Below, one piece after another: positions 6,279-6,629 of a stretch of DNA of 10,290 nt (position 1 is its first letter; each line of letters begins with the position of its first letter). The notes beneath the pieces were generated by a model. The model made no database searches, was not told where the DNA came from, and saw only the letters and a program-made list of their open reading frames with translations. Made by a program: the position numbers and the translations under genes. This DNA comes from a virus (Duplodnaviria; Heunggongvirae; Uroviricota; Caudoviricetes). The stretch lies in the IMG/VR virus record IMGVR_UViG_2711768000_000004, one strand, 5' to 3'.

Positions 6279-6353
6279 TGGAGCGGGCAGCGGGAATCGA
6301 ACCCGCATCATCAGCTTGGAAGGCTGAGGTAATAGCCATTATACGATGCCCGC
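6279..6353 (-). tRNA. tRNA-Gly (anticodon UCC)
   Basis: Minus-strand sequence GCGGGCATCGTATAATGGCTATTACCTCAGCCTTCCAAGCTGATGATGCGGGTTCGATTCCCGCTGCCCGCTCCA folds as a cloverleaf: 7-bp acceptor stem, anticodon loop CTTCCAA, T loop TTCGATT, encoded CCA. Appears identical to E. coli glyT as I recall it. Confidence 0.85.
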
Positions 6354-6356
6354 ATA

Positions 6357-6432
6357 TGGTGCCGACTACCGGAATCGAACTGGTGACCTACTGATTACAA
6401 GTCAGTTGCTCTGCCTGCTGAGCTAAGTCGGC
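6357..6432 (-). tRNA. tRNA-Thr (anticodon UGU)
   Basis: GCCGACTTAGCTCAGCAGGCAGAGCAACTGACTTGTAATCAGTAGGTCACCAGTTCGATTCCGGTAGTCGGCACCA. Acceptor stem GCCGACT/AGTCGGC, anticodon stem ACTGA/TCAGT with loop CTTGTAA, encoded CCA. One A-C mismatch in the T stem. Confidence 0.7.
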
Positions 6433-6434
6433 GC

Positions 6435-6511
6435 TGGCCCACCACCGAGGACTCGAACCTCGCACCGTCAACTTAGAAGGTTGATGCTCTATCCGGATGA
6501 GCTAGTGGTGG
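6435..6511 (-). tRNA. tRNA-Arg (anticodon UCU), argN-like
   Basis: CCACCACTAGCTCATCCGGATAGAGCATCAACCTTCTAAGTTGACGGTGCGAGGTTCGAGTCCTCGGTGGTGGGCCA. Acceptor stem CCACCAC/GTGGTGG, anticodon stem TCAAC/GTTGA with loop CTTCTAA, T arm CGAGG-TTCGAGT-CCTCG, encoded CCA. Confidence 0.85.
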
Positions 6512-6512
6512 T

Positions 6513-6589
6513 TGGTGGCCCTTGCTGGACTTGAACCAGCGACCTGGCGATTATGAGTCGCTCGCTCTGACCAACTGAGCTAAAGGGCC
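6513..6589 (-). tRNA. tRNA with CAU anticodon (Ile2/lysidine type, ileX/ileZ-like; Met not excluded)
   Basis: GGCCCTTTAGCTCAGTTGGTCAGAGCGAGCGACTCATAATCGCCAGGTCGCTGGTTCAAGTCCAGCAAGGGCCACCA. Anticodon loop CTCATAA. Very similar to my recollection of E. coli ileX. Encoded CCA; a 27-43 A-C mispair in the anticodon stem. Confidence 0.8.
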
Positions 6590-6600
6590 GGAGGCAGAAT

Positions 6601-6629
6601 AATAACCATATGTCATCACATCTGCAAAC
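6601..6629 (-). promoter_or_regulatory. Candidate sigma70 promoter for the tRNA cluster
   Basis: Minus strand TTGCAG (6629-6624), 17 bp, TATTAT (6606-6601). The first tRNA 5' end (6589) lies about 12 nt downstream of the -10. Confidence 0.4.

Follow-up and report, generated by a model that had tools for sequence, protein, structure and literature searches.

The 10,290-bp stretch of Caudoviricetes DNA held in IMG/VR as record IMGVR_UViG_2711768000_000004 (hereafter the window, meaning the whole stretch that was analyzed) raises the question of why a lambdoid prophage keeps four closely packed tRNA genes between its antitermination gene Q and its lysis genes, and from where those genes were drawn. 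An earlier reading made from the letters alone (the sequence-only reading) had proposed such a cluster, with anticodons CAU, UCU, UGU, and UCC, and had suggested that host tRNA sequence was captured into a phage array. We find that the array belongs to a family of lambdoid-prophage tRNA arrays that is known from Escherichia coli and Shigella and already widely annotated; its gene identities, position, conservation, and codon enrichment are matters of observation. The explanation that we favor, and to which we assign slightly better than an even chance, is that the array is a late-region tRNA operon that supplements four minor tRNAs for codons that are poorly read in the host.

When run over the whole window, ARAGORN called exactly four tRNA genes, all on the minus strand (Table 1). 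All four scored above the gathering threshold of the Rfam tRNA covariance model (RF00005; 29 bits) and were called as cloverleaves bearing an anticodon, and all four cloverleaves are intact. The intergenic spacers, read from the sequence, are 1, 2, and 3 nucleotides (nt) long, and a CCA 3′ end is encoded in 4/4 genes. ARAGORN, Rfam, and the sequence itself therefore agree with the sequence-only reading on the number of genes, their anticodons, their coordinates, their tight spacing, and their encoded CCA ends; that reading also listed the genes in their order of transcription, leaving unstated the strand, which is minus. A permissive Rfam search of positions 5713-6773 for other structured RNAs returned only the four tRNAs and sub-threshold noise. 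No terminator was recognized directly 3′ of the Gly gene, where the fold is no better than that of shuffled sequence (z = 0.25), and the next terminator-like site downstream of the array (6020-6001) is unremarkable.

The identity of each tRNA was evaluated by pairwise alignment with tRNA genes of E. coli K-12 and phage 933W. The CAU gene is identical to 933W ileZ at 74/77 positions (96%), to ileY at 71/77 (92%), and to ileX at 69/77, as compared to 54/78 (69%) for metT/metU and 48/78 for the initiator metZ. Because its identity to ileX, ileY, and ileZ is 90-96% whereas that to the Met tRNAs is 62-69%, the gene is, by alignment, an Ile2 (AUA) tRNA of the ileZ-type phage allele, an identity that the sequence-only reading had missed. 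The Prokaryotic Genome Annotation Pipeline (PGAP) names the identical CAU gene tRNA-Ile in other genomes. The CAU anticodon of tRNA-Ile2 reads AUA after lysidine modification, and the C4-G69 and C5-G68 pairs, which we take to be determinants for TilS, are present in the gene. An A27-C43 mismatch tops its anticodon stem (gene at 6513-6589), in place of the G-U pair of ileX and ileY; the mismatch is common to 933W ileZ, and Rfam flags the pair as non-canonical.

The UCU gene is most similar to 933W argN (61/77, 79%), followed by argU (58/79, 73%) and argO (46/77, 60%). It has a C1-G72 pair, a canonical 7-nt anticodon loop (CUUCUAA), and a cloverleaf without mismatches. The anticodon of 933W argN is UCG, and the UCU gene is thus best described from these alignments as an argN-type body with a UCU anticodon rather than an argU or argO body.

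The two remaining genes resemble those of the host. The Thr gene is identical to K-12 thrU at 74/76 positions (76/76 in most related arrays), the sole differences being U16C and U20C, both in the D loop, and the window allele is 100% identical in phage SerU-LTIIb. In MG1655, thrU is the only tRNA with a UGU anticodon (PMC12445682). The sequence-only reading had suspected that an A-C mismatch in the T stem might impair this tRNA. However, the anticodon arm and the T arm, with the A52-C62 mismatch included, are those of K-12 thrU, and since the mismatch is native to the host gene it is no sign of impairment; a defect on this ground is ruled out. The Gly gene is identical to K-12 glyT at 75/75 positions, as had been proposed.

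Upstream of the array, a scan for the sigma-70 consensus identified TTTGCA-18-TATTAT at 6628-6599 (9/12 match), which we read as a −35 element TTGCAG (6627-6622), a 17-nt spacer, and a −10 element TATTAT (6604-6599). A GC-rich stretch, CTGCCTCC, lies 3′ of the −10 element, and a 5′ leader of ~2-3 nt is expected ahead of the first tRNA. By itself, the match to the hexamers carries little weight, because the scan of this region returned five promoter-like sites where chance would give 2.5 ± 1.7. For each ileZ-like gene in the loci that were retrieved, the preceding 80 nt were extracted (121 sequences) and collapsed into 23 classes differing pairwise at >12 of 80 positions. Across these classes, TTGCA at −38 to −34 and TATtAT at −15 to −10 stand in register with the tRNA start and are followed by a partly conserved GC.CCC, with most other columns being <60% conserved. 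The record of 933W (AF125520), whose upstream sequence is among the 23 classes, labels this element ‘pT, putative tRNA promoter’. Conservation of the hexamers across the classes supports a real array promoter and strengthens the plausible sigma-70 promoter of the sequence-only reading. Farther upstream, a predicted intrinsic terminator (6703-6682) comprises an 8-bp stem with five GC pairs and a run of seven T (−12.2 kcal/mol, z = −2.8). This terminator would end the anti-repressor transcription unit and is predicted to be read through by Q-modified polymerase; an analogous terminator is annotated upstream of the 933W tRNA genes.

The combination of tRNAs, which the sequence-only reading had considered distinctive, is already known and annotated. 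Nine complete E. coli genomes carry the 311-bp array at 100% identity under the annotation Ile/Arg/Thr/Gly, and a colinear array at ≥80% coverage was identified in 603 of 5,426 genomes, in which PGAP labels it Ile/Arg/Thr/Gly or Ile/Lys/Thr/Gly. The same kind of array is annotated in the GenBank phages PhiR47_1 (PV340566), vB_EcoS-689R5, phi467, and SerU-LTIIb. A pattern scan of IMG/VR recovered at least 120 loci; 120 of them, the window, and three further loci made up a table of 124 arrays. Among the 124 arrays listed, 59 are Ile2-Lys-Thr-Gly and 28 are Ile2-Arg-Thr-Gly; the gene order and spacing of the window are found in 28/124 and its haplotype, ‘Arg(UCU) + Thr C16/C20 + Ile2 GTTGGTCA’, in 24/124, the window included. 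Screening of species representatives revealed related loci at 99.1-99.5% identity, three occurrences of the array pattern in each of S. flexneri SFBU1023 and E. coli ECMA0423, and array variants in Enterobacter mori, Yokenella, Buttiauxella, and Rosenbergiella. In the open-access literature, we found nothing specific on ileZ/argN/argO or on tRNA-Thr/Gly in prophages.

Prophages that carry the identical array differ in their Q family, lysis cassette, and terminase/packaging module. Since the same array sits in different backbones, it behaves as a small mobile module, and its 100% identity across differing prophage backbones indicates selection on the array itself. One might instead suppose that the array persists as a junction for homologous recombination among mosaic lambdoid phages and that its tRNAs have no function. 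Such a passive role would fit with a block of ~960 bp (5729-6690) that is 99.4-99.6% identical among prophages with unlike flanks. However, we consider it very improbable: each of the four tRNAs has an intact cloverleaf, the promoter hexamers are kept where neighboring bases vary, and decayed genes in the second position of related arrays (slot 2) fail the Rfam threshold, indicating that decay is visible where selection is relaxed.

Codons of 10 window genes (2,466 codons) were compared to those of 42 annotated K-12 genes (14,790 codons). By standard wobble rules, the four array tRNAs should read AGA, AGG, AUA, ACA, GGG, and GGA, and these codons rank 1, 2, 6, 7, 8, and 12 among the 61 sense codons in enrichment (AGA 5.4-fold, AGG 4.9-fold, AUA 2.7-fold, ACA 2.3-fold, GGG 2.3-fold, and GGA 1.8-fold). 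The sequence-only reading had proposed to check the usage of AUA, AGA, ACA, and GGA in the late genes. Because the six served codons rank high, codon supplementation is the best explanation of the array. Codons read by argU, ileX/Y, and thrU have been linked to the expression of horizontally acquired genes (PMC2408971).

Several observations weigh against this explanation. The codon comparison covers only ~2,500 codons and a host sample of 42 genes, and rare codons outside the reach of the array, i.e., CGG, CGA, UGU, UCA, and CCC, are enriched to an equal degree (ranks 3, 4, 5, 9, and 10). The match is thus partial and may perhaps reflect just relaxed codon bias. Across the E. coli genome, ATA accounts for 7% of Ile and AGA for 4% of Arg codons (PMC2408971); our K-12 sample uses fewer rare codons than these genome-wide figures, against which the excess is only ~1.6- to 2-fold. 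The array promoter matches the consensus at only 9 of 12 positions, and a benefit during lytic growth cannot now apply to the IS2-damaged prophage copy in the window. More generally, a published discussion notes that phage tRNAs are not fully accounted for by a match to codon usage (PMC11464382).

In a lysogen, constitutive expression from pT would raise the levels of minor tRNAs and aid the translation of AT-rich acquired genes such as those for virulence factors, fimbriae, and other prophages, in which case selection at the level of the bacterium, not lytic growth, would keep the prophage copy. The array has an independent, conserved promoter, with a terminator lying between it and the late promoter; the array is intact and 100% conserved even in an IS2-damaged prophage; and a single genome can have as many as three copies, as in S. 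flexneri SFBU1023 and E. coli ECMA0423. Moreover, the supply of rare tRNAs governs the expression of fimbrial and prophage genes (PMC2408971). Nonetheless, the codons of the Gly(UCC) and Thr(UGU) tRNAs are not very rare (6.0 and 5.4 per 1,000 in the K-12 sample), and we regard selection through the lysogen as a possibility that falls well short of even odds. It is compatible with codon supplementation as favored here and differs from it only in the beneficiary.

Under codon supplementation, promoter activity, the processing route, and the physiological benefit are those that we infer. In a lysogen, the array would be transcribed from its own sigma-70 promoter, pT (6627-6599), to yield a tetracistronic precursor with a short leader. 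After induction, Q-modified polymerase initiating at a PR′-like promoter would also transcribe the array, reading through both the isrK terminator and the terminator at 6703-6682. RNase P would cut at the 5′ end of each tRNA and, because the spacers are only 1-3 nt, would thereby leave the upstream 3′ ends nearly mature, with exonucleases trimming these back to the encoded CCA; this route draws on general knowledge of polycistronic tRNA transcripts in E. coli. The extra tRNAs would then raise the decoding capacity for codons that phage genes and other horizontally acquired genes use more often than the core genes of the host do.

A different benefit could come from conflict with host defenses, where the array would replace host tRNAs that are cut by anticodon-arm nucleases during infection or induction. 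Among such systems, PARIS and PrrC comprise tRNA nucleases that act on tRNA-Lys. P2 Old blocks phage lambda by destroying thrU, and the tRNA-Thr(UGU) of phage 21 rescues cells (PMC12445682). HepS of Gifsy-1, which is triggered by the lambda-type tail-tip protein J, cleaves tRNA-Thr species including that with UGU (PMC13043305). Changes in related arrays, namely Lys(UUU)-type genes with C33 in slot 2, altered Thr anticodon stems, and thrU-type genes with a UUU anticodon, are the pattern expected of an arms race. However, the window itself does not conform to it. Protective phage tRNAs resist because their anticodon stem is shortened and their CNG motifs are changed (PMC12445682), and a nuclease-evasion signature of this kind was rejected upon alignment of all four window genes, the arms or loops of which are those of the host. 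Specifically, the anticodon arms of the Thr and Gly genes match thrU and glyT at every base, the anticodon loops of the Arg and Ile2 genes are likewise those of the host, with only stem pairs differing, and the Thr gene retains both CNG motifs, A37, and a full 5-bp stem, the features that make thrU sensitive to P2 Old. The U16C and U20C changes in the D loop have no known part in resistance. Supplying more host thrU protected little, if at all (PMC12445682), and the window array could at most replenish the host pool by extra supply. Recent findings make a counter-defense role a serious contender, but we consider it unlikely for this array.

Changes of anticodon arms do occur in related arrays. 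The commonest slot-2 gene, ‘Lys(UUU)’, has an argN-like body with the loop CCUUUAA (e.g., L001, 5158-5234), carries C in place of the near-universal U33, and scores 40.4 bits as compared to 56.4 for the Arg gene of the window. In other loci (e.g., L010, L026, L040, L044, L067, L101, and L104), slot 2 holds an argN-like scaffold, CCGCCACTAGCTCATCGGGAAGAGCGGCAAC...GTTGTAGTACGAGG..., with an anticodon loop of only 5-6 nt (TAAAT, TTAAT, TTTAT, ATGAT, CCAGGT, CCAGAT, CATAGT, or CTTGGT); ARAGORN names these genes inconsistently (Phe, Leu, Ser, ‘Stop’, or undetermined) and none reach the Rfam threshold. Such genes are perhaps pseudogenes in decay, or else a tRNA-like element that is diversifying. In slot 3, five loci (L051, L075, L099, L102, and L115) carry a thrU-type gene with UUU instead of UGU, plus A26G; in four of the five, slot 2 holds a Lys-type gene with a damaged D stem, and that of L051, the only one of the five that was scanned with Rfam, is below the tRNA threshold. 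Slot 4 of L118 holds a truncated glyT-type gene with the anticodon UAC. Across the array family, switching of anticodons in fixed scaffolds thus seems to recur. In addition, the 3′ strand of the Thr anticodon stem is changed from TCAGT to TCATC or TCACC in E. coli VL40 (L003) and two IMG/VR loci, resulting in a shorter stem and an altered CAG motif; the window allele is without such a change. Stem-shortening, motif-altering changes of this kind have been reported to confer resistance to P2 Old on phage tRNA-Thr (PMC12445682).

These variants allow for a broader, though in our estimation improbable, interpretation in which the Ile2-X-Thr-Gly array is, beyond a codon supplement, a modular back-up for the sole host decoders of certain NNA codons, and in which the array family evolves in an arms race by edits to the anticodon arm in fixed scaffolds. 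This interpretation would cast sole-decoder tRNAs as single points of failure that tRNA-cleaving defenses could exploit, and the array of the window would represent the host-like form without edits. Its U16C and U20C changes might then alter recognition by some as yet uncharacterized nuclease.

The surroundings of the array are those of a lambdoid late region (Table 1). As the sequence-only reading had placed it, the array lies between Q and the lysozyme/Rz genes (5135-4177), which Pfam identifies on the same strand, with an anti-repressor module intervening after Q. The same layout (Q, tRNAs, lysis) is seen in 933W, PhiR47_1, and E. coli prophages. The predicted start of the PR′-like promoter coincides with the 5′ end of an isrK-like RNA (the match begins at 7686), and a c4-a1b1 target match is located at 7699-7647. 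The short RNA transcribed from PR′ in this phage thus appears to belong to the isrK/C4 type, like that of the Gifsy-1 isrK locus, and the anti-repressor (Ant) open reading frame (ORF) together with the C4-like RNAs resembles the c4-ant module of P1 immI type, here inside the late region. A run of N (6774-6934, 161 bases) interrupts the Ant ORF, and a second (5678-5712, 35 bases) masks part of the IS2 region.

Table 1. Features of the window that are discussed in the text, with the evidence for each.
Feature	Position	Strand	Evidence or remark
tRNA-Ile2, anticodon CAU	6513-6589	minus	ARAGORN (Met/Ile2 call); Rfam tRNA, 70.5 bits
tRNA-Arg, anticodon UCU (AGA/AGG)	6435-6511	minus	ARAGORN; Rfam tRNA, 56.4 bits
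tRNA-Thr, anticodon UGU (ACA)	6357-6432	minus	ARAGORN; Rfam tRNA, 69.8 bits
tRNA-Gly, anticodon UCC (GGA/GGG)	6279-6353	minus	ARAGORN; Rfam tRNA, 64.9 bits
Putative array promoter (pT equivalent)	6599-6628	minus	Consensus scan; conserved hexamers; 933W pT annotation (AF125520)
Predicted intrinsic terminator upstream of array	6682-6703	minus	Scan and fold
DnaB-type helicase	10260-8728	minus	Pfam
RusA-like resolvase	8474-8103	minus	
Antitermination protein Q	8134-7727	minus	Pfam PF06530 Phage_antitermQ, E 2.7e-52
PR′-like late promoter site	7722-7693	minus	TTGACC-18-TATATT, 10/12, directly after Q
isrK-like RNA	7686-7610	minus	Rfam, 77.5 bits; ends in terminator 7631-7615
C4 antisense RNA match	7584-7501	minus	Rfam, 71 bits
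sRNA-Xcc1 match	7367-7284	minus	Rfam, 77.4 bits
Anti-repressor (Ant) ORF	7444-6749	minus	PHROG anti-repressor families, E down to 1e-50
IS2 fragments	~5158-5677	both	Occupy expected holin position
Lysozyme	5135-4638	minus	Pfam Phage_lysozyme, 2.1e-45
Rz	4653-4177	minus	Pfam Phage_lysis, 3e-52
HNH endonuclease	3784-4134	minus	Just upstream of small and large terminase genes

Downstream of the Gly gene, ~550 nt (5729-6278) hold no recognizable gene, and PGAP annotates nothing there; the ORFs at 5805-6101 (98 aa) and 6019-6234 (71 aa) match no Pfam or PHROG family, and the segment has no Rfam match. This segment travels with the array in other prophages at 99.4-99.6% identity. The IS2 remnants that follow comprise the N terminus of TnpA on the plus strand and the C terminus of TnpA with the first 62 residues of TnpB on the minus strand. 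Because IS2 fragments take the place of the holin, and no holin was recognized there (5158-5677), the prophage copy is probably defective in lysis. The genes downstream are ordered lysozyme, Rz, HNH endonuclease, small terminase, large terminase, and portal, and an HNH gene beside terminase genes is typical of HNH-dependent cos packaging modules.

The supply of tRNAs is the standard proposal for phage-borne tRNA genes, and the window itself matters little in this regard. What it adds are corrections: no defect attaches to the Thr gene, the tRNA with CAU is an Ile2, and UCU sits on an argN-type body in the Arg gene. The lead that extends beyond the window is the variable slot 2 and the anticodon edits of related arrays, which can be mined given recent work on P2 Old, HepS, and PARIS.

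Comparison with known systems places the array more precisely. It shares with ileZ-argN-argO of phage 933W (AF125520) a position after Q/PR′ and ahead of the toxin/lysis genes on the same strand, in agreement with the position assigned by the sequence-only reading. Also shared are an Ile2(CAU) first gene (96% identical), a second gene on an argN scaffold (79%), a TTGCA + TATTAT promoter ~10 nt before the first tRNA (i.e., pT), and a terminator upstream. In contrast, slot 2 has the anticodon UCU in the window and UCG in 933W, no argO homolog is present in the window (46/77), where copies of thrU and glyT are found instead, the spacers are 1-3 nt as compared to 9 and 13 nt in 933W, and the window is without stx genes downstream. 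The window thus has the late-region position, the ileZ-like first gene, and the pT element of the ileZ-argN-argO type, but not argN (UCG) and argO (UCU) in slots 2 and 3. Because slot 2 is UCU, an argO homolog is lacking, and slots 3 and 4 hold copies of thrU and glyT, the array can therefore be assigned, on gene content, to a sister Ile2-X-Thr-Gly variant. With the annotated Ile2-Lys/Arg-Thr-Gly arrays it shares colinear genes in four slots, spacers of 1, 2, and 3 nt, thrU and glyT types in slots 3 and 4, the same Gly gene, and the same or nearly the same Thr gene, with no difference of substance.

Phage 21 is likewise a lambdoid phage with its own tRNA-Thr(UGU) (tRNA-Thr21; PMC12445682), although its sequence was not located in the phage collection; in nuclease-resistant phage tRNA-Thr the anticodon stem is shorter and the CNG motifs are changed, whereas the window gene has the unaltered thrU arm. 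Finally, the host operon thrU-tyrU-glyT-thrT-tufB has Thr and Gly genes in the same order (74/76 and 75/75 identical), but tyrU, a 116-nt spacer, and thrT are absent from the window, where Thr and Gly are 3 nt apart. A related locus (L012) has a 103-nt Thr-Gly spacer without a remnant of tyrU. Comparison of flanks and spacers revealed no homology between the array and the host operon, and capture of thrU-tyrU-glyT together with its flanks was rejected on this comparison. Of the host capture that the sequence-only reading had suggested, simple acquisition of an operon is accordingly without backing from flanking host sequence, but a host origin of the Thr and Gly genes remains plausible given their host-like coding sequences. 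By these alignments, the left half of the array (Ile2 and the argN-type Arg) is homologous to the ileZ-argN-argO array of Shiga toxin (Stx) phages, and its right half (Thr and Gly) comprises copies of host thrU and glyT.

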